DNA of 64,000 nucleotides from an uncultured Clostridia bacterium (GTDB taxonomy: Bacteria; Bacillota; Clostridia; TANB77; RGIG9151): assembly GCA_934500865.1 (NCBI GenBank), contig CAKSUD010000001.1:1509-65508 (forward strand), written 5' to 3'. The notes below the pieces were generated by a model. That model was not told the origin of the DNA, did no database searches, and was given only the letters and a program-made list of their open reading frames with translations. Positions 1 through 49,327 of the stretch are shown here, piece after piece (the stretch's first letter is position 1; each line of letters opens with the position of its first letter). The position numbers were made by a program, and so were the translations under genes.

Positions 1-1375
1 AACGATACTTCGTGACGGACATCAATCGCTTATTGCGACAAGAATGACTACTGATGAGATGTTACCTGCATTAGAAAAGCTTGATGCTATTGGGTATAAT
101 GCATTAGAATGTTGGGGCGGTGCTACATTTGATGTATGTATGAGATTTCTAAAAGAGGATCCGTGGGTAAGACTTAGAAAGATCAGAGAAACAGTTAAAA
201 ATACGAAGCTACAAATGTTGCTTCGTGGTCAAAATTTACTTGGATATAAAAATTATTCGGATGATGTTGTTGAGTATTTCGTTAAGAAATCTATTTCAAA
301 TGGAATAGATATTATTAGAATATTTGATGCATTAAATGATTTTAGAAATATTGAAACTGCAATAGAAGCATGTAAACATGAAGGTGGACACGCCCAGGCA
401 ACTATATGCTATACAACAAGTCCGGTGCATACAATAGATGGATTCGTGGAAGATGCAAGGCGTTTATATAATATGGGCGCGGATTCTATATGTATTAAAG
501 ATATGGCGGGAATATTACTTCCGTATACTGCTTATGAGTTGGTTAAGAGGATAAAAGAATATGTTAATTTACCTATTGAACTTCATACGCATTATACTGC
601 AGGTACTGGTTCAATGACTTATCTAAAGGCTATTGAGGCGGGTTGTGATATAATAGATACAGCACTTTCTCCATTTGCGTTAGGCACTTCACAGCCTTCT
701 ACCGAAGCAATGGTAGCAACACTTAATGGAACACAGTTCGATACAGGACTTGATTTATCTGCTTTTGCTGATGTTTCTAACTATTTTAATGGAATTAAAG
801 AAAAGTATATACAAAATGGAATGCTTGACTCTAAAGTTATGTCGGCAGATTCAAATGTGCTTATTTACCAGGTACCTGGTGGAATGCTTTCTAATTTAGT
901 TTCACAGTTAAAACAACAAAATGCGATGGATAAGTTTAATGAGGTATTGGCGGAAGTGCCTAGAGTTCGTGAAGATATGGGATTTCCTCCTTTGGTTACG
1001 CCTACAAGCCAAATTGTAGGTACACAGGCTGTGTTAAATGTAATTATGGGCGAGAGATATAAAATGGTTACAAAGGAAACAAAAGGTTTGGTAAGAGGAG
1101 AATACGGAAGGACTCCTGTACCTATTTCAGAGGAAATAGTGAAAAAGATTATTGGAGATGAAACTGTTATTAGTTATAGACCGGCTAATCGAATACCACC
1201 GGAGCTTGATAAAATGCGCAAAGAAATGAACGAATATTTTGAGCAGGATGAAGATGTTTTGTCTTATGCATTATTTCCTAATATTGCATTAGATTTCTTT
1301 AAGCTAAGACGCGCAGAAAAATATGGGATAGAATCAGAATTTACTGATTTTGAAAATAAAGTAACAATTGTATAA
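1..1375 (+). CDS. Oxaloacetate decarboxylase alpha / pyruvate carboxylase subunit B-like carboxyltransferase (5S-type), 5' partial, no biotinyl domain
   Basis: In-frame upstream codons read TILRDGHQSLIATRM, continuing the conserved OadA/PycB N-terminus, so the gene is truncated by the window edge. HMGL-like fold (LRDGHQS, ECWGGATFD). The protein ends about 443 aa, before any AMKM biotin-attachment lobe. Confidence 0.8.
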   Translation, partial: TILRDGHQSLIATRMTTDEMLPALEKLDAIGYNALECWGGATFDVCMRFLKEDPWVRLRKIRETVKNTKLQMLLRGQNLLGYKNYSDDVVEYFVKKSISNGIDIIRIFDALNDFRNIETAIEACKHEGGHAQATICYTTSPVHTIDGFVEDARRLYNMGADSICIKDMAGILLPYTAYELVKRIKEYVNLPIELHTHYTAGTGSMTYLKAIEAGCDIIDTALSPFALGTSQPSTEAMVATLNGTQFDTGLDLSAFADVSNYFNGIKEKYIQNGMLDSKVMSADSNVLIYQVPGGMLSNLVSQLKQQNAMDKFNEVLAEVPRVREDMGFPPLVTPTSQIVGTQAVLNVIMGERYKMVTKETKGLVRGEYGRTPVPISEEIVKKIIGDETVISYRPANRIPPELDKMRKEMNEYFEQDEDVLSYALFPNIALDFFKLRRAEKYGIESEFTDFENKVTIV

Positions 1376-1389
1376 GAGGAGTTAAATTT

Positions 1390-3015
1390 ATGGGCAAGTT
1401 TTTTGGATTTAATGAAAATTATGTGGGATTATCTGATAATGAGGCGTGGCTTAGAGTTTATGACAAAGGTAAAAATTTAATGCCTATAAAAAACAAAAAA
1501 ATTCAACACAAATATAATAATATGTTTAGAAAAAAGACTAAAGTTATAAGAAGTGGAATTTCAAAATCCGTAAAAACAGATTGCCTTGTTCCAGAGGATA
1601 TAATTTTAGTTGAAAAAGGCGATTTTGTGCCTGTTGATGGTATTGTTTTAGAGGCAAACAATCTTTATATGGAAAATGATATTTGTTTTAATTCTGCTAA
1701 CATTGAAGTTGGAGAACAATATTATGATAAAGATAAGCCAGTTTACCAAGGAATGAAAGTAAAGTCTGGCAAGGGGTTAATTAGAGCAGAAAAAACCGGT
1801 ACTGAGACTTTACTTGGAGAACAGATAAAAGAAATTGATTTATTTAACAAAAAGGAAAGTAAGACTGCGAAGAAGTTTCTCGTTTTTTCAGGAATATTAA
1901 CAATTATACTATTTTTTATTGCTATTGGCACTCAATTCTTTAATTCTAAAGATTTCGGAATTGCTTTAAAATATGGTGTTATAATGCTTATTGCAGCTTT
2001 TCCGGTTAGTTTTTTAATTACAGTATTTATAAGAGTGTTTATGCAGTTAGATATTTTTAAGAAATTCGGGCTTGTATTGAAAAACAAAAATTATTTATTT
2101 GATTTTAGGAAATTAGATATTATTTGCATAGATAAGAAATTTCTTATTCAAGATTTTACAAAGTACATTCAAGATATCTTTAATGCAGGAATTAGGGTTG
2201 CCGTTATTAGTGATACTTCTTTGGAAGATACATTAAAATCAGCAAACGAAGCCGGAATTGACACTAAAAATACGACATATTTTTCGGGTGACGAACTAGA
2301 TAGAATGGAAGAAGAGGAATATGTAAAGGCAATATGCGAAGGAATAATATTTTATAATATAAGTCATAAGCAAAAAAGCAAAATGATAAAAATATTTGAA
2401 GAAGTAAAAATAAATGTGTTATGTGCCGGAGACGGGATAGAGGATTTAGCAAGTATATGGGAAGCATATATCGGACTTTCAAGCAATAGGACTAAAAGGA
2501 GTATAGATAGAGGCTTAGCTGATTTACTAATATCCGGCAATAATTTTTCAGCGGTATATAGACTAATAAAGAGCAGAATAGAATTTAGAAAGATGATTAT
2601 TTCAAACTTTAAGTTAAATATTGCCTTCCAAATTCCATTGATGTTTTTGACGCTATTTGCAGTTGTAAACAACATTGGCATTTTAAGTTTTGTTTTTCAT
2701 CTTTTAGCGTTGGAGCTTATAATTATTCCACTATTATTGATGTTTTCTACTAAAGGCTATAGTGAAGAAGAAATATTTGTTCCGTATGAAAATGAGTTAG
2801 GAATAAAGAGCGTTGCTAAAATGGCTGGTTTTGGCTTAATTATCTTAGCTATTTTGGCTGTCGGTTATGTTGGACTAAATGTTTTAATTAAGAATGATAT
2901 TATAAATGTAAGTATTGTTACTGTAGTGCTTGCGATATTCTATTGGGTATGTATTAGGTTAAATCAAAAGGTAGTTAAAAAGAATACTAAAATAGAAGAA
3001 CAAACCATAATTTAA
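1390..3015 (+). CDS. P-type ATPase-like membrane protein with degenerate catalytic motifs (putative pseudo-ATPase)
   Basis: RBS GAGGAG precedes the start. The actuator-like segment (VYQGMKVKSGKGLIRAEKTGTETLLGEQI) lacks TGES. About 6 TM helices are present, including a PEGL-like AAFPVSFL helix. DKTGT is replaced by ICIDKKF, and the N-domain is absent. The hinge GDGxND reads CAGDGIEDLAS. Confidence 0.55.
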   Translation: MGKFFGFNENYVGLSDNEAWLRVYDKGKNLMPIKNKKIQHKYNNMFRKKTKVIRSGISKSVKTDCLVPEDIILVEKGDFVPVDGIVLEANNLYMENDICFNSANIEVGEQYYDKDKPVYQGMKVKSGKGLIRAEKTGTETLLGEQIKEIDLFNKKESKTAKKFLVFSGILTIILFFIAIGTQFFNSKDFGIALKYGVIMLIAAFPVSFLITVFIRVFMQLDIFKKFGLVLKNKNYLFDFRKLDIICIDKKFLIQDFTKYIQDIFNAGIRVAVISDTSLEDTLKSANEAGIDTKNTTYFSGDELDRMEEEEYVKAICEGIIFYNISHKQKSKMIKIFEEVKINVLCAGDGIEDLASIWEAYIGLSSNRTKRSIDRGLADLLISGNNFSAVYRLIKSRIEFRKMIISNFKLNIAFQIPLMFLTLFAVVNNIGILSFVFHLLALELIIIPLLLMFSTKGYSEEEIFVPYENELGIKSVAKMAGFGLIILAILAVGYVGLNVLIKNDIINVSIVTVVLAIFYWVCIRLNQKVVKKNTKIEEQTII

Positions 3016-3038
3016 TGTTATGGTTTGTTCTTTTTGGG

Positions 3039-3395
3039 TTAATTTTTTACTTTTGGTCTGAATATTAATCCGACTAAGAAACTAAAGAAGATAGCAGCAC
3101 CTACTCCGGCTGCAGTAGCTTTTATTCCACCTGTGAATATTCCTAAGAAGCCATAGGTTGAAACTTCTTTGAATACTCCTTTTACTAAGGAATAGCCGAA
3201 TCCTGTGAGTGGTACGGTTGCACCTGCTCCACCGAATTTTACAATTGGTTCGTATATACCTATTGCTGTTAGAATTACACCTGTAACAATGAAAGTTACT
3301 AAAATTCTTGCTGGTGTTAATTTTGTTTTATCAATTAATATTTGTCCGATGGCGCATATTATACCACCCGTTATGAATGCAGTTAAATATGACAT
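3039..3395 (-). CDS. spoVAE: Stage V sporulation protein AE (SpoVAEB-type small membrane subunit)
   Basis: 118-aa polytopic protein with Gly-rich motifs (FGGAGATVPLTGFG). It is paralogous to the upstream SpoVAC-like ORF and is the third gene of a spoVAC-AD-AE arrangement. Confidence 0.75.
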   Translation of the reverse strand: MSYLTAFITGGIICAIGQILIDKTKLTPARILVTFIVTGVILTAIGIYEPIVKFGGAGATVPLTGFGYSLVKGVFKEVSTYGFLGIFTGGIKATAAGVGAAIFFSFLVGLIFRPKVKN

Positions 3396-3407
3396 TATTA
3401 TACCTCC

Positions 3408-4412
3408 TTAATTTTCTATTGAAATTGCGTGAGCTATTCCGGAAATTGATTCTCCTTGTTGAATTGCAGTTGTACTCATAAGTGCGCCGGTTGCAACAAG
3501 AAGAATTCTGTTTAACTCTTTTTGCATTAATTTTTCATAGAGGTATCCGCAAAATACTGTTCCGCAACAAGCACATCCGCTACCACCCGAATGTGTGTCC
3601 TGTTGTGATTTGTCAAAAATTAAGATTCCACAATCATTGTATCTGTTTTTTATATTTATTCCTTGCTTGTAGAGTATATCTTTTACAATTTCGCCGCCGA
3701 TATGTCCTAAATCTCCGGTTACTATTAAATCATAATAATTTGGTTCTCTGCCTGTTTCTGTTAAGTGTGAATATATCGTGTCTGCTGCTGCCGGAGCCAT
3801 TGCCGCTCCCATATTATTTGCATCTTTTATGCCCATATCTACGATTTTTCCGATTGTTACATTTGTTATTTTAGGTCCAATATTATCTGTTGATATAATT
3901 GCCGCTCCCGAGCCTGTTACTGTCCATTGAGATGTTGGAGGACGTTGGTTTCCTAGTTCTAGGGGGAATCTAAATTGCCTTTCTGCCGAACAGAAATGAC
4001 TAGAGGTTACTGCTAAAATATTATCTGCAAATCCGCCATCAACTAGCATCGAACCCACAGCCATAGATTCTACCATTGTGGAACAAGCACCATATAATCC
4101 GATAAATGGTATTTCACTATCTCTTATTGCATACGACGATGAAATACATTGATTTAATAAGTCCCCGGCAAGGACATAATTAATGTCATCCGGAGTTTTT
4201 TGAGCTTTTTGTAAAACTTTGTTTATATTTTCTTTTGCCAGTTTTGATTCTGTTTTCTCAAAGCTTTTTTCACCCCAGTACTCATCTTCTAAAATATAAT
4301 CAAAGTATTGCTTAAGAGGACCTTCGCCTTCTTTTTTACCTACAATAGAGGCTGTTTGTATAATATGTGGTGTACTGTTTAGCGAAACAGTACTTTTTCC
4401 CAGTCTTTTCAT
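3408..4412 (-). CDS. spoVAD: Stage V sporulation protein AD (thiolase-fold)
   Basis: 334 aa with a SpoVAD-like condensing-enzyme fold. Flanked by the spoVAC-like and spoVAE-like genes. Confidence 0.85.
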   Translation of the reverse strand: MKRLGKSTVSLNSTPHIIQTASIVGKKEGEGPLKQYFDYILEDEYWGEKSFEKTESKLAKENINKVLQKAQKTPDDINYVLAGDLLNQCISSSYAIRDSEIPFIGLYGACSTMVESMAVGSMLVDGGFADNILAVTSSHFCSAERQFRFPLELGNQRPPTSQWTVTGSGAAIISTDNIGPKITNVTIGKIVDMGIKDANNMGAAMAPAAADTIYSHLTETGREPNYYDLIVTGDLGHIGGEIVKDILYKQGINIKNRYNDCGILIFDKSQQDTHSGGSGCACCGTVFCGYLYEKLMQKELNRILLVATGALMSTTAIQQGESISGIAHAISIEN

Positions 4413-4429
4413 AAAGTGCTCCTTTCTGG

Positions 4430-4876
4430 TTATAGGTTAAATATAAAATAGAGAAAACCAACTACGATAGATGAAGAGATACCGTAAACAAGTACGGGAC
4501 CTGCAACTGTGAACATTTTTGCACCGAGTCCCATTACAAGACCTTCAGATTTATATTCCATTGCTGGTGAGGCAATAGAATTTGCAAATCCGGTGATCGG
4601 AACTACCGAACCGGCTCCGGCACGTTTTCCAATTGCGTCATATAAGTCAAACGCAGTTAAAATTATAGCAATTAGTATAAGAAGTATAGAAGTAATTGCT
4701 GAGACTGTGTCTTTAGGTAATCCACGAGCTACAAAAAAGTTAGTTATAAATTGACCTATTATACATATAATTCCTCCAACTACGAATGCCCAAGCCATAT
4801 TTTTGGCAAGTGGACTGTTTGGAGATTTTTTATCTACATACTTTGAATATTCTGCTTGTGTAAATTGCTTATTCAT
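4430..4876 (-). CDS. spoVAC: Stage V sporulation protein AC
   Basis: 148-aa membrane protein with a motif similar to SpoVAE (AGAGSVVPITGFANS). First gene of the tricistron. Confidence 0.8.
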   Translation of the reverse strand: MNKQFTQAEYSKYVDKKSPNSPLAKNMAWAFVVGGIICIIGQFITNFFVARGLPKDTVSAITSILLILIAIILTAFDLYDAIGKRAGAGSVVPITGFANSIASPAMEYKSEGLVMGLGAKMFTVAGPVLVYGISSSIVVGFLYFIFNL

Positions 4877-8355: not shown

Positions 8356-10140
8356 ATGAAAAAGTTGGGATATTTAAAAAATATTTTATTTAATTCAGCT
8401 ATTTTGATATTAACATTTATAGCGGTAGTGTTAATAGTTTCTTCGAGCCTATTATTAATGCATATTAATATCTCAAAAGTATCTTTTATAGTATCAGGAG
8501 TTATTACATTAGCGGTATATTTTCTTATATACCGCTTTTTGCGTTTAAAAAAATCGGAGAGCACATTGGCTGAGAATGTTGGTGGGGCAATACTTGGAAT
8601 ATGTGTTTTTTTCATTTCATTGTTTGTTTGCACACAAATTTACGATTTGGCACACGATAGCAATTGGTATCATAAGGCTGCAATAGGATGTATGGCTAAT
8701 GGTTGGAATCCTTGTTATGAAAACATTACTGAGTTTGGTAGCCGTTCTAAAATAGGAATAGGGAATTTACCTGACTGTGGGATTTGGGTTGAACATTATT
8801 GCAAGGCTTCGTGGATTTTTGGTGCTAATGTATATTCGATTACCGGAGACATTGAAACTGCTAAATCAATTAATATATTGATGGTATATGTGTTATTTTG
8901 CTTTGCTTACTGTATATTATCTAAATACCTTAAAAATTGGCAGTCTATTATAATTGCTGTGCTTTTAACATTTAACCCGATTATATTGTCTCAAGTTTTT
9001 TCCCTTTATATAGATAATTTGTTGATGACAACATTATTTGTTATTGTACTTTTATTGGCAGATATAACATATAAAAAAGAATTTAATGATGTAAAAAAGA
9101 TTAACTTTTTAGCATTATTCTCGGCAATAGTTATTTGTATAAATATAAAATTTACCGGATTAGCATATGCGGGGATTTTTTGCTTTATCTTTTACTTAGT
9201 GTGGTTAGGTATTAGCATAAAAGATAAGAACTTTAAAAAGGTATTTATTTGGATGACTGCTTTTTATTTAGTTACATGCATAGTAGCAATAATTTTAGTT
9301 GGATTTTCTAGCTATGTAAAGAATTTTGTTGAGCATGGGCATCCGTTATATCCTCTTGCTGGTGAAGGAAAAGTAGATATAATGACGGGTAACCAGCCAT
9401 CATCTTTTGATAATATGATTGGAGTAAAAAAACTTATTTATTCTGTATTTTCAGAAACAGATAACATAGTTGGGGATGGAAGAAGTCCTAAACTTAAAGT
9501 TCCATTTAGGGTAAGTGAGTATGAAAAGGAAATATGTAAAAAGGGAGCGGATATAAGAATTGCTGGATTTGGTCCTCTTTTTAGTGGAATCTTATGTGTT
9601 TGTGCGCCGATTATATTATACGGATTGTTTTATTTATATAAAAAGGATAAAGAATGGTTTTGTATATATTTAACTTTACTTTGTATAATAGGTGGAATGC
9701 TACTTTTAATTCAAGAGAGCTGGTGGGCAAGATATTCGCCATATTTTTATCTTGTACCTTTAATGGCACTTATGATATTATTTAGCATATGGAACAGCCA
9801 AGGAAAAAGTGGTTTTGGTATAACTGGTTTGGGTATTTCTATTGTTTTAAGTGCGATTATATTTTTTAATAGTACATATTTTATGGATTATCCGATAAAT
9901 TGCAGAAAAGAAACGATAACTATTAAAGAGAATTTGGCTAAGGTTAGTGAGATTTCTAAGAGTCAGAGAGTGAATATTAAGTTTTTTACCTATGCTTATT
10001 ACGGGTTAGAATTTAATTTTAGAGATTATGGAATAAATTATAAGATTGTTGGTAGGACAACCGGAGAATTAGTACCGGTTTATGGTAAAATGGCTGAAAT
10101 GGAGGTAATTTACAATGAAGAAAATTTGCTCAATAATTAA
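8356..10140 (+). CDS. Polytopic membrane protein, GT-C-like (putative polyprenyl-phosphate-sugar dependent glycosyltransferase, AftB-like position)
   Basis: 594 aa with about 11+ TM helices. An Asp-containing first loop (YDLAHDSNWY) and a C-terminal soluble domain. Lies 30 nt after pyrH and overlaps the UbiA-like gene. Confidence 0.35.
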   Translation: MKKLGYLKNILFNSAILILTFIAVVLIVSSSLLLMHINISKVSFIVSGVITLAVYFLIYRFLRLKKSESTLAENVGGAILGICVFFISLFVCTQIYDLAHDSNWYHKAAIGCMANGWNPCYENITEFGSRSKIGIGNLPDCGIWVEHYCKASWIFGANVYSITGDIETAKSINILMVYVLFCFAYCILSKYLKNWQSIIIAVLLTFNPIILSQVFSLYIDNLLMTTLFVIVLLLADITYKKEFNDVKKINFLALFSAIVICINIKFTGLAYAGIFCFIFYLVWLGISIKDKNFKKVFIWMTAFYLVTCIVAIILVGFSSYVKNFVEHGHPLYPLAGEGKVDIMTGNQPSSFDNMIGVKKLIYSVFSETDNIVGDGRSPKLKVPFRVSEYEKEICKKGADIRIAGFGPLFSGILCVCAPIILYGLFYLYKKDKEWFCIYLTLLCIIGGMLLLIQESWWARYSPYFYLVPLMALMILFSIWNSQGKSGFGITGLGISIVLSAIIFFNSTYFMDYPINCRKETITIKENLAKVSEISKSQRVNIKFFTYAYYGLEFNFRDYGINYKIVGRTTGELVPVYGKMAEMEVIYNEENLLNN

Positions 10141-10981
10141 ATTGATGCGTCCACATCATTATATAAAAAATGGCTTGTTATTTTTACCGCTTGTTTTTAG
10201 CGGAAATTTATTAAATAAAGACTTCCTTATTGTATTAATGATAGGCTTTTTGGCTTTTTGTCTTTCTTCATCAGTTATTTATATAATAAATGATATTTTT
10301 GATGTGGAAAAAGATAAATTGCATCCTAAAAAATGCAAAAGACCAATAGCATCGGGTGAAATTTCAATTAAATTTGCTTGGGTTTTAGCTATTTTATTAC
10401 TAGCAGTAGTTGTGGCATTAAATTACATTATTGCAAGTAACAACATTGGTGCTTGGGTACTTTTAGGATTATATATTGTGCTAAACTTTGCATACAGTAT
10501 GGGATTAAAACAAGTACCGTTATTAGATATTGCAATATTAGTTTCTGGATTTTTAATTAGAGTCTTATATGGAGCAAGTATAATAAGTGTTGTTGTTTCT
10601 AATTGGCTATACTTAACTGTAATTGCTATGGCTTTTTATTTGGGATTAGGAAAAAGAAGAAATGAAATGGCTAGACAGGGAAGTGATACAAGAAAAGTTT
10701 TGCAATTTTATAATTATAATTTTCTAGATAAGAATATGTATTTGGCTAATGCACTTACAATTGTTTTTTATTCGCTTTGGTGTGTTGATGCCGGAACTAT
10801 TGCGAGATTTTCGAACAAATTGATTTGGACAGTTCCACTAGTTATGCTAATAAGTATGAAATATAGCTTAAATATAGAAGGAAATTCAGATGGAGACCCT
10901 GTTGATGTGGTATTGAGTGATAAGATTTTAGTAGTGTTAGCTATGATTTATGTAATTTCGATATTAATTCTTACGTATTAA
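10115..10981 (+). CDS. UbiA-family prenyltransferase, decaprenyl-phosphate phosphoribosyltransferase (DPPR synthase)-like
   Basis: RPHHYIKNGLLFLPLVFSG plus the NDIFDVEKD (NDxxDxxxD) motif. Polytopic, 288 aa. Start overlaps the end of the upstream gene. Confidence 0.65.
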   Translation: MKKICSIIKLMRPHHYIKNGLLFLPLVFSGNLLNKDFLIVLMIGFLAFCLSSSVIYIINDIFDVEKDKLHPKKCKRPIASGEISIKFAWVLAILLLAVVVALNYIIASNNIGAWVLLGLYIVLNFAYSMGLKQVPLLDIAILVSGFLIRVLYGASIISVVVSNWLYLTVIAMAFYLGLGKRRNEMARQGSDTRKVLQFYNYNFLDKNMYLANALTIVFYSLWCVDAGTIARFSNKLIWTVPLVMLISMKYSLNIEGNSDGDPVDVVLSDKILVVLAMIYVISILILTY

Positions 10982-11137: not shown

Positions 11138-11224
11138 TGGTGCGCGAAACCGGAATCGAACCGGTACGGTATCGCTACCGCAGGATTTTAAGTCCTGTGC
11201 GTCTGCCTGTTCCGCCACTCGCGC
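11138..11224 (-). tRNA. tRNA-Leu (anticodon UAA)
   Basis: Reverse complement reads GCGCGAGTGGCGGAACAGGCAGACGCACAGGACTTAAAATCCTG...GGTTCGATTCCGGTTTCGCGCACCA. It has a long variable arm, anticodon loop CTTAAAA, and an encoded CCA. A hairpin plus T-run follows on the minus strand (11103-11137). Confidence 0.85.
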
Positions 11225-11514
11225 ATGAGCATATAATAGCACATAGTCATTTTGTTGTCAATTAAAAAAACAAAAAAATTGTAGAATTTTTTTTCACTAA
11301 ATATAAATAGCTAACATTAATATTGCTATAATACAGTAATACAGTGAAAAAAATGAAATTATAAAAAAAATAAAAAAAATTTTTAAAAAGTGTTAAGAAA
11401 AAAAAATTAAATACGATAAAGGAATTGTAAAGGATATAAAGATGTTAAAAATGGATGTTCAAAAGATGGATGTCAAGGAAGAAAAAGACGGTAAAAATTA
11501 AGGAGGAATTAATC

Positions 11515-12957
11515 ATGAGGATTAATCACAACATTTCGGCAATTAATGCCCACAGACAATTATCATCAAATCAAGGAGCTACATCAAAGTCATTACAAAA
11601 ATTATCATCAGGTTTAAGAATTAACAGTGCAGCTGATGATGCAGCAGGACTCGCTATAAGTGAGAAAATGAGAACACAAATCAGAGGTTTGGAGAAAGCT
11701 CAAAGTAATGCACAAGACAGTATATCTTTGATTCAAACTGCAGAAGGAGCCTTACAAGAAGTAAGTAATATTTTGCAGAGAATGAGGGAATTAAGCGTTC
11801 AATCTATGAACGGTATTCTTTCTGAAACTGAAAAGGATGCAATATCTGCTGAAATGACGCAACTTAGACAAGAAGTCGATCGTATTGCAGAAACAAGTAA
11901 ATTTAATAATACATATCTTCTCAAAGGTACGCTTGGTATGACTGCAAATACTGCAACGTCAAGTATTTATACAACTAATTCTGTTACAGGAAAAGCTGAA
12001 TTAATGAACGGAGTAGTTGGTTTAGATGTAGCTGCTGCTGAGAAGAATACAGAATATACAATTTCTGTGGGTAATAAAACAGTATACAATGCTTCTACTA
12101 AAGATGATGCAGAAGCTAAGTATGTTATACCTGCAGCGGCAGATGGAAATACCGCAAAGGAAAGTGATAATGCAAACTATGCTAATAAGGCAGGAAAATG
12201 GATAAAAACTGATGGTAGTGAGTATGATCCAGCGGCTGATGGAGCTGACCCTACGGCTGTTGCAAAATATATCATACCAGATGATGCTGATGGTAGAACA
12301 ATTAAAAATGATACTGAAGGAGTAAGCGGAAAGTCTGGCTGGGTAAAAGCTGAGACATCTCAAGCACTTCAAATCACATATAAAGATATATCTGGTAAAG
12401 AAGTAACAGCAACAAGCACAATTGACCCGGCTTCTACATTCTCTGGTTTCATTGGATTCACAGATGCAAATGATAGCGATTCAGGTATTAAGATTCAAGT
12501 TGAAGATATGGATTTAGCTCAATTAGATGGTGTAGTTGTTAACACATCTGATGGCGGAAAGACGAATCTTCACATCGGTGCTAACTCAGTTGATGCCCCA
12601 TTAAAAATTGAAATTCCTGATTTAAGAGCTAGAGCTCTTGGAATAGAAGACTTAAGCATAGTTACAACAAATGATGCAAAGCAAACTTTGGATAAAATAG
12701 ATAATGCACTTACAACATTAAGCTCAGCAAGAGGTAACTTAGGTGCATACCAAAACAGACTTGAATATACATTAAATAGCTTGGCAGCTTCTGCTGAGAA
12801 CTTAACAGCGGCTGAATCAAGAATTAGAGATGTTGATATGGCTAAGGAAATGATGACATTTACACAAGCTAATATCCTTAACCAATCTGCTACTGCAATG
12901 CTTGCACAAGCAAATCAACAACCTCAAACAGTATTACAATTATTACAAGGATTATAA
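11515..12957 (+). CDS. fliC: Flagellin (orphan fliC-like)
   Basis: RBS AAGGAGG, then MRINHNISAINAHRQL. Conserved D0/D1 termini (LSSGLRINSAADDAAGLAISEKMR ... QANQQPQTVLQLLQGL) around a variable central domain. The track ORF start at 11455 is probably spurious. Confidence 0.9.
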   Translation: MRINHNISAINAHRQLSSNQGATSKSLQKLSSGLRINSAADDAAGLAISEKMRTQIRGLEKAQSNAQDSISLIQTAEGALQEVSNILQRMRELSVQSMNGILSETEKDAISAEMTQLRQEVDRIAETSKFNNTYLLKGTLGMTANTATSSIYTTNSVTGKAELMNGVVGLDVAAAEKNTEYTISVGNKTVYNASTKDDAEAKYVIPAAADGNTAKESDNANYANKAGKWIKTDGSEYDPAADGADPTAVAKYIIPDDADGRTIKNDTEGVSGKSGWVKAETSQALQITYKDISGKEVTATSTIDPASTFSGFIGFTDANDSDSGIKIQVEDMDLAQLDGVVVNTSDGGKTNLHIGANSVDAPLKIEIPDLRARALGIEDLSIVTTNDAKQTLDKIDNALTTLSSARGNLGAYQNRLEYTLNSLAASAENLTAAESRIRDVDMAKEMMTFTQANILNQSATAMLAQANQQPQTVLQLLQGL

Positions 12958-47308: not shown

Positions 47309-48706
47309 ATGGAAGGGAATGATTACTTAATGCAAAGTGAAGTTATTTCTGATGCAAGAAAAGTATTGGGCGATTTGCTTGATGAGAAAAGTTTTGTAGA
47401 AATTTTAGAAAACTATGATTTGGGTGTTATATGTGGATATGGCACTATAAATTTACGTCCTGTTTGCGTTTTTGCTCAGGAGCATACGGTAGATAATGGT
47501 GCTGTTAACGAGAAAAATTGTGAAAAGATTTGTAAAATCATTGATATGGCTATGAAGAATGGCATTACTATAATTGGTATTTATGATTCTATGGGTGTAA
47601 AGATTGATGAGAGTTCAAGGGTCTTTCTAGGAATTAGAAAAATGCTTGATAAGATGGCATTAGCTTCGGGGGTTGTTCCTCAGATTTCTGTTGTTTTAGG
47701 CAGTGCTGTTGGAGTTGCGTCTTTTGCAGTTAATTTCAGTGATTTTGTGTTTATGATTGATAAAAAGAGTCAGATGTTTGTAAATGGTCCGCAAAGTATA
47801 ATGGCGGAAGAGGGAAATGAAGTGACGGCAGAGGAACTTGGAGGAGCTATGGTTCATTCTGAAAAGTCAGGAATGTGTGATGTAATAGTTGCTTCAATAG
47901 AAGAGTGTACTAAAAAGGTGAAAGAACTTTTGGATTATTTACCTGACAATAATTTGGCGGATGTTTATGTTACAGATAGTGATGACTTAAATAGAGAATG
48001 TGACGAATTAGATAATGGAATTGAAAACAACAGAGAAGTTGTTTTTGCTATAAGTGATGAAAATAAATTTTATGAAATAAAGGCTGAGTTTGAAAAAAGT
48101 GTAATAACAGGATTTTCAAGAATTGGCGGAAGAGTAAGCGGAATAGTGGCGAATGTTCAAAGGACACTAAATTCTAAGTCAATAGAGAAGATTATAAAAT
48201 TTGTTAGATTTTGTGATGCTTTTAACATACCGATTGTGACATTGGTCGATGTTGAGGGGACAAAGATTAGCACTGATGAGGAAATGAACGGTATTTCAAG
48301 CAAATTAGCTAGACTTATTTATTCATATTCTGATGCGACTGTTCCAAAGATAGATATTATTATAGGAAATATGTTTGGAGGAGCTTCGACTGCAATGGGA
48401 GCTAGTCCCGATATAACTTTGGCATGGGATAGTGCTAAAATATCTGTGGCATTGCCTAAAGTTGCAGTTAATGTAATATATAGTAATGAAATTTCAGAGG
48501 CGGAAGAGCCTGTTAAGTATAGAGAGGAAAAACTAAGTGAGTACTTAGGGAATGAGGCTATACCGGAAAAAGCAGAGGAAACATCTTTTATAGATGGAGT
48601 AATTAGACCTAGTGAAACTAGAAAAAGAATTATAAATGCTCTTGAATTATATATAAGCAAGAGGGAAATTAAGATAAACAAGAAGCATAGCAGTATGCCT
48701 TTTTAG
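47309..48706 (+). CDS. Acyl-CoA carboxyltransferase (PccB / MmdA / transcarboxylase 12S-like), short form
   Basis: Both CT halves are present. Oxyanion region LGSAVGVASFAVNFSDFVFMIDKKSQMFVNGPQSI ... EELGGA. Confidence 0.75.
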   Translation: MEGNDYLMQSEVISDARKVLGDLLDEKSFVEILENYDLGVICGYGTINLRPVCVFAQEHTVDNGAVNEKNCEKICKIIDMAMKNGITIIGIYDSMGVKIDESSRVFLGIRKMLDKMALASGVVPQISVVLGSAVGVASFAVNFSDFVFMIDKKSQMFVNGPQSIMAEEGNEVTAEELGGAMVHSEKSGMCDVIVASIEECTKKVKELLDYLPDNNLADVYVTDSDDLNRECDELDNGIENNREVVFAISDENKFYEIKAEFEKSVITGFSRIGGRVSGIVANVQRTLNSKSIEKIIKFVRFCDAFNIPIVTLVDVEGTKISTDEEMNGISSKLARLIYSYSDATVPKIDIIIGNMFGGASTAMGASPDITLAWDSAKISVALPKVAVNVIYSNEISEAEEPVKYREEKLSEYLGNEAIPEKAEETSFIDGVIRPSETRKRIINALELYISKREIKINKKHSSMPF

Positions 48707-48717
48707 GAGGAAAGTAA

Positions 48718-48894
48718 GTGTATAATATAAATATTTTGAATGATGTAAATGATGATAATTTACGAGTTGCAATTATTTCTGCGGTTACAGAAATGATGAC
48801 CGGAGAAAGTAATTTAAATGTTACTAGAATGAAAAGAGGAAAATTAGAATCGCCTATTTGGAATGCGATTTTAAGACAAGATAACTTAAAATAG
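48718..48894 (+). CDS. Small protein (58 aa) between carboxyltransferase and biotin carrier, possibly decarboxylase epsilon/delta-like; not in track
   Basis: AGGAGG RBS followed by a GTG start. Sequence MYNINILNDVNDDNLRVAIISAVTEMMTGESNLNVTRMKRGKLESPIWNAILRQDNLK. Confidence 0.25.
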   Translation: MYNINILNDVNDDNLRVAIISAVTEMMTGESNLNVTRMKRGKLESPIWNAILRQDNLK

Positions 48895-48937
48895 TCTCTA
48901 CTTAGCACTAATTAGTAATAAGAAAGGATGAAATGGT

Positions 48938-49327
48938 ATGGAAAAATTTCTTAAAGTTACTGTAAATGGTACGGTGTATGATGTTAAGGTTGAAGAAGTA
49001 AAACCTGGAGAAATAAAGGTGGAGGAAAGTGTAGCTCCTGCTAAAGTTCAAGAAACGAAACCTCAAGTAGAACAACCTAAACCGGCAGAAAATAAAGTTG
49101 CACCCACTTCTGGAAATATTAAGGTTCTTGCACCGATGCCGGGCAATATATGGAAGATAAAAACATCTATTGGTGCTAAGGTTGAAAAACACGAAGTATT
49201 ATTAATTTTAGAGGCAATGAAGATGGAAAATGAAATTGTTGCGCCTGAGGCAGGAACGGTTACTAACATTTTAGTAAAAGAGGGAGATGCCGTAGAACCG
49301 GGAAAAGTAATGGTTGAAATGGCATAA
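48938..49327 (+). CDS. Stand-alone biotin carboxyl carrier protein (1.3S / MmdC / GcdC-like)
   Basis: MEKFLKVTVNGTVYDVKVEEV ..., a Pro/Ala/Glu linker, and the EAMKMENEI biotinyl-lysine motif. Confidence 0.8.
   Translation: MEKFLKVTVNGTVYDVKVEEVKPGEIKVEESVAPAKVQETKPQVEQPKPAENKVAPTSGNIKVLAPMPGNIWKIKTSIGAKVEKHEVLLILEAMKMENEIVAPEAGTVTNILVKEGDAVEPGKVMVEMA

Follow-up and report, generated by a model that had tools for sequence, protein, structure and literature searches.

A domain-minimised, putatively non-catalytic P2-type ATPase derivative beside oadA and spoVA genes in uncultured gut Clostridia

Introduction

How can a protein with the fold of an ion pump be kept by selection when the parts that drive the pump are gone? 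This question is raised by a gene, here called X, that lies near one end of a stretch of 64,000 nucleotides (nt) from an uncultured Clostridia bacterium (contig CAKSUD010000001.1; "the window" hereafter means this whole 64-kb stretch), with a gene for a carboxyltransferase of the OadA type on one side and a convergent spoVA operon on the other. A first-pass annotation had taken X for a catalytically dead relic of a P-type ATPase that serves the carboxyltransferase as a membrane partner. We find that X is a derivative of a P2-type (Ca-ATPase-like) P-type ATPase, that it has lost the nucleotide-binding (N-)domain, four transmembrane (TM) helices and the canonical catalytic motifs, and that it is nevertheless under clear purifying selection. 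The explanation to which we lean, with a confidence only a little above even, is that X is a pump-derived, non-catalytic membrane scaffold that would ancestrally have been driven by sigma-D and would later have been captured into an oadA transcription unit. Coordinates are collected in Table 1; L numbers denote loci and P numbers proteins of the comparison set.

Sequence and predicted structure of X

The open reading frame (ORF) of X is continuous over 541 codons, and its family assignment follows from several searches. The Pfam model PF00122 (E1-E2_ATPase) matches amino acids (aa) 45-213 with E=2e-22; the NCBIfam model TIGR01494 ('HAD-IC family P-type ATPase') scores 66.8 bits in two stretches, against a cut-off of 62.3; and in a phmmer search of the PDB, aa 45-251 of X align with residues 110-337 of the Listeria Ca-ATPase LMCA1 and aa 260-440 with residues 535-718. 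The actuator (A-) and phosphorylation (P-)domain scaffold described in the first pass is thereby established, although of the two Pfam families that it had named for the purpose only PF00122 is found: PF00702, as well as PF13246, has no match in X. The same holds for PF03977 (OAD_beta), and the PADLOC models of anti-phage defence match neither X nor the family members P0123 and P0125. Full-length pumps of 810-880 aa are at most 31% identical to X over 40% of the query, and at NCBI the single named family member carries the name 'hypothetical protein'.

The alignment with LMCA1 locates the losses. At the N-terminus, 44 aa of X stand for LMCA1 residues 1-109: The M1-M2 hairpin is missing, and only about 15 residues separate a Cation_ATPase_N-like motif (GLSDNEAW..Y..G.NLMP) from the A-domain. 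The TGES loop of the A-domain reads FNSA, in columns that are variable across the family. In helix M4 the PEGL motif reads P205-V-S-F, whereby the helix-breaking Pro205 is invariant and the ion-binding Glu is, as aligned, lost; in the alignment of the X family no conserved acidic residue that could serve as an ion ligand is left in M4-M6. Between positions 251 and 260 of X, which correspond to LMCA1 residues 337 and 535, about 8 aa replace the roughly 197 residues of the N-domain (LMCA1 338-534). The phosphorylation motif DKTGT reads DKKF, for which the family consensus is C-x-D-x-x-F with invariant C246 and F251; Asp248 is kept in 12 of the 14 aligned members and is replaced by Glu in P0123 and by Tyr in P0125, and in both proteins the next residue is an Asp. 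In the hinge, GDGxND has become GDGIED: Asn has changed to Glu, the final Asp is almost invariant across the family, and the first one varies. Finally, the P-domain is followed by four helices only, which means that M9-M10 are missing as well. X thus has the A-domain and the overall fold of a functional P-type ATPase, and it lacks DKTGT, TGES, the N-domain, GDGxND and an M1-M6 core with its ligands. Judged by these motifs, it cannot bind ATP canonically, nor can it run a phosphorylation/dephosphorylation transport cycle.

An AlphaFold2 model of X, built on an alignment of 62 sequences, reached a predicted local distance difference test score (pLDDT) of 82.3 and a predicted template-modelling score (pTM) of 0.77. 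It shows exactly six TM helices (M3-M8), only a short loop at the position of the N-domain, and a disordered former TGES loop (pLDDT <50 at aa 99-109). The three motif substitutions, the missing N-domain (with about 10 aa counted between DKKF and the hinge), the six TM helices and the PEGL-like helix AAFPVSFL had all been read correctly in the first pass, which had overlooked that M1-M2 and M9-M10 are gone. A Foldseek search of the PDB with the model returned LMCA1, SPCA1, Pma1 and SERCA with E values of about 1e-22. The TMq scores were 0.68-0.72 to E2-state structures vs 0.52-0.59 to E1 states, the best (0.72) belonging to SERCA in E2, and the head of X is predicted to adopt an E2-like docked arrangement. 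Among the matches were pump complexes with phospholamban or sarcolipin (4kyt, 4h1w and 4y3u). In pumps, the M4/M6 face together with M2 and M9 forms the groove that binds these two peptides.

Extent, conservation and selection of the X family

Proteins with this short architecture are rare. A search of 5.8 billion clustered proteins yielded only ten such clusters (34-98% identity), and when 1.84 billion representatives were searched exhaustively with a profile, about six X clusters at 50% identity came out, set apart from the pumps by a gap in bit score: The last X member scores 238 bits, the highest-scoring full-length pump 175. Bootstrap support for the monophyly of the family is 100%. Intact orthologues with this architecture number at least 14 (24-98% identity); in all 14 aligned members M1-M2 and the N-domain are missing, and DKTGT, TGES and GDGxND occur in none of them. 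A scan of GTDB genomes found X in only 4 species representatives, all of them uncultured 'Eubacteriales' or unclassified metagenome-assembled genomes, and a scan of JGI metagenomes with the family alignment found no X members, only distant full-length pumps. The range of the family is narrow and takes in only a few uncultured Clostridia species from the gut.

Between close pairs, the ratio of non-synonymous to synonymous substitution rates (dN/dS) of X is 0.12-0.20, compared with 0.01-0.06 for oadA and spoVAC/D/E when the same genomes are paired: X is under clear purifying selection that is 4-6 times more relaxed than that on oadA, spoVAC, spoVAD and spoVAE. Where SpoVAD is 96% identical X is 67% identical, and where SpoVAD is 74-87% identical X is at 26-33%; because X diverges while SpoVAD stays highly identical, we regard the clade as shallow and X as fast-evolving. 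A frameshift or a hidden exon in X is ruled out, as the ORF is unbroken, the DNA upstream is oadA coding sequence, and the orthologues are intact and show the dN/dS values just given. The earlier description of X as a catalytically dead P-type derivative, as opposed to a pseudogene that restoring the frame would turn into a full ATPase, is therefore upheld.

Conservation is distributed unevenly over the protein. Mean pairwise identity amounts to 44-45% in the N-terminal segment and the A-domain, which together form the best-conserved region (with G13, L14, A19, W20, Y24, G27, N29, G77, P81 and D83 invariant), to 35-36% in the P-domain, to 17-29% in the TM helices and to 15% in the former TGES loop. 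This gradient is the reverse of what is expected for a working pump. Members outside the clade of the window additionally carry a Lys/Glu-rich, low-complexity C-terminal tail of 40-90 aa that ends in an acidic-hydrophobic motif, e.g. EDIKDxI[LM]; in the window clade little of it is left (about 60 aa are gone).

Promoter motifs and gene history

The genomic context of X was read in 15 loci, and it falls into two types. In the first, X follows an upstream spacer of its own: No oadA stands upstream of X in L012 (divergent dnaG-sigA), L028/L029 (argS, 244-nt gap), L027 (SLH-domain protein), L025/L026 and L008 (at least 174 nt of non-coding DNA) and L007 (an unrelated small ORF, then a terminator). 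These six lineages comprise two subclades and the basal clade of the X tree. In L012, L025, L027, L028, L007 and also in L030, a sigma-D-type motif of the form TAAN-N15/16-GCCGATA(T/A) lies 28-52 nt before the start of X, and L008 carries the variant GACGATAT before X, so that all seven orthologues with an upstream spacer of at least 96 nt possess it. The published sigma-D (sigma-28) consensus is TAAA-N15-GCCGATAT (PMC5200910). The motif also stands before flagellin (window 11419, L001 17011, L002 20220, L012 150) and flgM (L001 34, L002 26), sites that serve as internal positive controls; the copy before flagellin in the window reads TAAG-N14-TACGATAA. As GCCGATA is rare, with six occurrences on both strands of the 64-kb window, its presence in seven spacers is not due to chance. 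X copies with a spacer would, on this pattern, depend on sigma-D.

In the second type, oadA is directly upstream of X, and this holds for 9 of the 15 loci. The string thyA-folA-oadA-X with gaps of 11-14 nt is found in the window, L001, L002, L003/L004, L010 and L011; oadA was likewise read directly before X in L005/L006 (33-nt gap), L031 (12-nt gap) and L030 (145-nt gap). No sigma-D motif was found within 300 nt upstream of the window X or of the other short-gap copies. In the window, the gap measures 14 nt and not 15 nt as first stated, and a consensus scan detected neither a promoter-like nor a terminator-like site between oadA and X, nor a sigma-70 promoter within the 3' end of oadA. In a relative with 89-91% identity the unit thyA-folA-oadA-X is bracketed by terminators; in L001 thyA is preceded by a terminator and a promoter-like site, and from thyA on only weak terminator matches with 5-bp stems occur until a bidirectional hairpin at the X stop. 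In the window lineage, X probably shares a transcript with thyA, folA and oadA, in keeping with the co-transcription with oadA assumed in the first pass, but this does not extend to the six lineages without oadA upstream. It is in itself odd that thyA and folA, genes of thymidylate synthesis, stand before the gene of a decarboxylase subunit.

On the tree, the sigma-D motif occurs in the basal pair (L027, L028) and in one of the two main clades (L030, L025, L007, L008, L012); the window clade and L031 are without it. Because the sigma-D-bearing copies sit basally and in the sister clade, the autonomous sigma-D-type state of X appears to be ancestral. On grounds of parsimony we picture the ancestral X as an autonomous gene that would have had a sigma-D promoter (sigma-28, the motility/autolysin regulon) and would have been arranged tail-to-tail with the spoVA operon. 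In the window lineage, the spacer would then have collapsed to 11-33 nt with loss of the sigma-D promoter and of the Lys/Glu-rich tail, and X would have become the terminal gene of the thyA-folA-oadA-X transcription unit. So read, the X of the window illustrates the operon capture of a formerly autonomous gene of the sigma-D type.

Proposed role of X

The losses, the conservation gradient and the model can be combined as follows. X descends from a bacterial P2-type Ca2+-ATPase-like pump from which the N-domain, M1-M2, M9-M10, the TGES/KTGT chemistry and the acidic ligands were removed; what remains is a six-helix anchor (M3-M8) that carries a compact cytoplasmic head made of N-terminal segment, A-domain and P-domain. 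This remainder would work as a membrane-tethered docking or regulatory platform. Its functional surface would be the well-conserved N-terminal/A-domain head, locked on the P-domain in an E2-like manner, and the loss of M1-M2 and M9-M10 would bare the M4/M6 membrane face and make room for the helices of a partner.

Several points weigh against this scaffold reading. The role was arrived at by exclusion, and the E2-like pose derives from a predicted model. The X of the window itself is without a sigma-D promoter motif, and the sigma-D assignment is a consensus match whose positive controls come only from the same genomes. Moreover, most members keep Asp248, Ser274, Lys329 and Asp352, the latter three being nearly invariant: These are four of the phosphate/Mg ligands of the HAD core, and with them some residual ligand binding or phospho-chemistry may have survived, although this is unlikely.

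A bolder version, which we put forward as speculation and consider unlikely, sees in X an undescribed 'mini-P-type' class of pseudo-pumps whose head and bare M4/M6 face are reused as a regulatory subunit, of an OadA-containing decarboxylase in the window lineage and of a sigma-D motility or envelope complex ancestrally; such a protein might sense a small phosphodonor or Mg2+/phosphate via Asp248, Ser274, Lys329 and Asp352.

Alternative explanations

An alternative that we regard as unlikely keeps to the first-pass proposal, according to which X occupies the position of OadB and acts as membrane partner, anchor or regulator of the biotin-less OadA. The nature of the upstream gene is certain: It exceeds the cut-off of NF008985 (767 vs 718 bits) and contains PF00682 and PF02436 only, with no biotinyl domain, just as had been annotated, and relatives carry a 465-aa oadA gene at the same place. 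The short spacer with its ribosome-binding site, uninterrupted by a promoter or terminator, speaks for a link between the two proteins, as does the direct adjacency in nine loci, which include L030 and L031 with an X of only 29-33% identity. A search by tblastn also found no OadB in the window or the other loci, but the window of 64 kb is uninformative on the whole genome. In L005 (1-2787), however, where X is 46-48% identical, the gene order is oadB-oadA-X with a true oadB (PF03977, E=1e-152), which rules out that X replaces OadB. Further objections are the six lineages in which oadA is not upstream (L012, L028, L027, L025, L007, L008), the sigma-D-type promoters that X possesses on its own account, among them the one in the spacer that splits oadA from X in L030, and the dN/dS of X at 4-6 times that of OadA. 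Synteny with oadA, by which the first-pass proposal was to stand or fall, is present in 9 loci and absent in 6; in a clade so shallow that OadA never falls below 78% identity, the adjacency may moreover be inherited. A physical interaction of X and OadA in the window lineage would rest on operon proximity in one shallow clade, and the link between the two genes looks like a local fusion of operons, not like a partnership that defines the family.

Quite unlikely, in our estimate, is a role in sporulation, in which X, itself derived from a sporulation Ca2+ pump, would for instance regulate the SpoVAC/AD/AE Ca-dipicolinate channel or form one of its subunits. The genes spoVAE, spoVAD and spoVAC are followed by ypeB and sleB, which marks the organism as a spore former among the Clostridia; in the relatives, the spoVA genes match PF03862 and PF07451. 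Wherever the DNA downstream of X could be read, which is the case in 13 loci, a convergent spoVAE comes next, even where X is only 24-28% identical, and spoVA is the only neighbour common to every informative locus even though the upstream side is rearranged in some. In L028 and L030 the stop codons of X and spoVAE even overlap by 4 nt, and the closest working relatives of X are Ca2+-ATPases. Yet the convergent orientation does not allow co-transcription, and in the window as well as in L001, whose equivalent hairpin measures 18-19 bp, a strong bidirectional terminator stands between the two; for these two loci we have also set aside an antisense or read-through coupling of X and spoVA. The promoter motif is of the sigma-D type, whereby no scan was aimed at sigma F/G/E/K motifs, and genes for a barnase-like ribonuclease and barstar interrupt X-spoVAE in L003 (5567-6176) and, together with a ParE-toxin gene, in L011 (5864-6889). 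Because the clade is shallow, with SpoVAD at 74-98% identity, the adjacency of X and spoVA is probably inherited synteny. As a detail of this junction, the left arm of the window terminator lies within the last X codons (EEQTII, stop), and C-terminal conservation in the window clade may in part reflect RNA structure.

That X is still an active transporter or a phospho-switch, fed by acetyl phosphate, inorganic phosphate or a nucleotide-binding partner acting in trans, we consider very unlikely. Asp248 in 12 of 14 members and the nearly invariant Ser274, Lys329 and Asp352 would fit such chemistry, and independent N-domain-less relatives do exist, one of which (P0185) keeps DKTGT, TGE[AS] and GDGIND. 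Against it stand the TGES loop, which is unconserved and disordered, the loss of the KTGT part, the replacement of the canonical Asp in P0123 and P0125, the missing conserved acidic residues in M4-M6 and TM helices that are among the least conserved parts. A decaying relic without function, to which the fast evolution relative to the neighbours and the narrow clade might point, is hardly credible and largely refuted by ORFs that have stayed intact and kept their architecture in 14 or more lineages, the most distant of them 24% identical, by the dN/dS values and by the conserved promoter and ribosome-binding site.

Further features of the window

A second biotin-dependent carboxyltransferase module (47309-49327) is encoded elsewhere in the window; no beta subunit of the OadB/GcdB type is present anywhere in the window, and its biotin carrier could also serve the biotin-less OadA. 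Between spoVA and flagellin, an ORF for a polytopic membrane protein overlaps a gene of the UbiA family, and this pair recurs in L002. Flagellin is encoded in the window, and flgM is present in syntenic relatives.

Table 1. Coordinates of X, its parts and the neighbouring features (positions in the window unless a locus is given)
Feature	Position	Strand	Remarks
X	1390-3015	+	541 aa; N-terminal segment, A-domain, M3-M4, P-domain without N-domain, M5-M8, short basic tail
N-terminal Cation_ATPase_N-like segment (aa 1-45) and A-domain beta-barrel (aa 46-150)	1390-1839	+	M1-M2 hairpin deleted between them
Former TGES dephosphorylation loop, now F100-N101-S102-A103	1687-1698	+	from LMCA1 alignment
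M3 and M4 helices	1852-2067	+	model helices 159-186 and 189-225
P-domain, Rossmann/HAD core	2068-2544	+	N-domain insertion replaced
Former DKTGT phosphorylation motif, now D248-K-K-F251	2131-2142	+	from alignment
Former GDGxND hinge, now G347-D-G-I-E-D352	2428-2445	+	from alignment
Four C-terminal TM helices (M5-M8 equivalents)	2545-2964	+	model helices 386-426, 431-452, 472-499, 503-524
Biotin-less OadA-type carboxyltransferase, 3' 458 codons	1-1375	+	5' end outside window; 465 aa in relatives
oadA-X spacer, 14 nt	1376-1389	+	GAGGAG ribosome-binding site 8 nt before ATG
Bidirectional intrinsic terminator, 15-bp stem	2996-3032		overlaps X stop codon, shared with spoVAE
spoVAE 3039-3395, spoVAD 3408-4412, spoVAC 4430-4876	3039-4876	-	convergent to X, 23 nt away
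Sigma-D motifs before X	L012:9947-9973; L025:~125-153; L027:~422-450; L028:~2205-2233; L030:9935-9961; L007:~361-389; L008:~117-146		
Sigma-D motifs of flagellin/flgM	window 11394-11419; L001:9-34; L002:1-26; L012:124-150	+ (window)	
Polytopic membrane ORF, 594 aa	within 8356-10981	+	no Pfam match; overlaps UbiA gene by 26 nt
UbiA-family prenyltransferase gene	10115-10981	+	
tRNA-Leu (anticodon TAA)	11138-11224	-	between UbiA-like gene and flagellin
Flagellin	11455-12957		
Carboxyl_trans protein, 465 aa	47309-48706	+	PF01039; then short ORF-like stretch
Biotin-carrier protein, 129 aa	48938-49327	+	PF00364

Comparison with known systems

The fold and the superfamily of X are known; its domain-minimised, catalytically dead architecture appears to be undescribed as a family under selection. 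Our literature search found no N-domain-less, inactive or non-catalytic family of P-type ATPases and nothing relevant on links between YloB and SpoVA. The practical weight of the finding is limited, because X has no known phenotype and occurs in only a few uncultured Clostridia species, and because the eye-catching link to OadA has been weakened.

Like the sigma-D (sigma-28/FliA) regulon of Firmicutes, the spacer-bearing X copies share their promoter motif with flagellin and flgM, whereas the X of the window is without it. We know of no P-type-ATPase-like protein that has been described as a member of this regulon.

With OadB, the beta subunit of the Na+-translocating biotin-dependent decarboxylases (PF03977), X has in common that it is a membrane protein encoded beside oadA; it is, however, unrelated to OadB in sequence and fold, and the oadB upstream of oadA-X in L005 marks it as an addition. 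The biotin-less carboxyltransferase itself has precedents, which counts against the idea that X holds the OadB slot: In Firmicutes, a biotin-less OadA with separately encoded OadB, OadD and OadH has already been described (PMC6193673). The oxaloacetate decarboxylase of the Enterococcus faecalis type resembles the system of the window in the biotin-less type of carboxyltransferase (NF008985) and the separate biotin-carrier gene (PMC6193673), but no cit, oadD, oadH or oadB stands beside the oadA of the window, which is part of thyA-folA-oadA-X instead.

Three further P2-like proteins without an N-domain are P0167, P0185 and P0216, in which the excision lies where it does in X, between the position of DKTGT and the hinge. 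They differ from X in their length of 679-699 aa and in that they keep M1-M2 and about ten helices; P0185 moreover retains DKTGT, TGEA and GDGIND, while the catalytic Asp has become Gly in P0167 and His in P0216. As these proteins form lineages separate from and unrelated to X, loss of the N-domain must have happened more than once.

The nearest well-characterised proteins are the P2A Ca2+-ATPases, in particular Listeria LMCA1 (PDB 6zhh/9euq) along with PMR1/SPCA and SERCA. X shares with them the A-domain, the Cation_ATPase_N-like motif, the HAD core of the P-domain, M3-M8 and the proline kink in M4, and it differs by the loss of the N-domain, M1-M2, M9-M10, TGES, KTGT and the acidic ligands, by a variable first Asp of GDGxND, and by its 541 aa as compared to about 830-880 aa. 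P-type ATPases are among the best-understood pumps, and set beside them X indicates how far the fold can be cut down: The A-domain, the P-domain and M3-M8 are kept by selection without the rest. X would also offer a natural test case for the behaviour of the A/P head and the membrane core without ATP.

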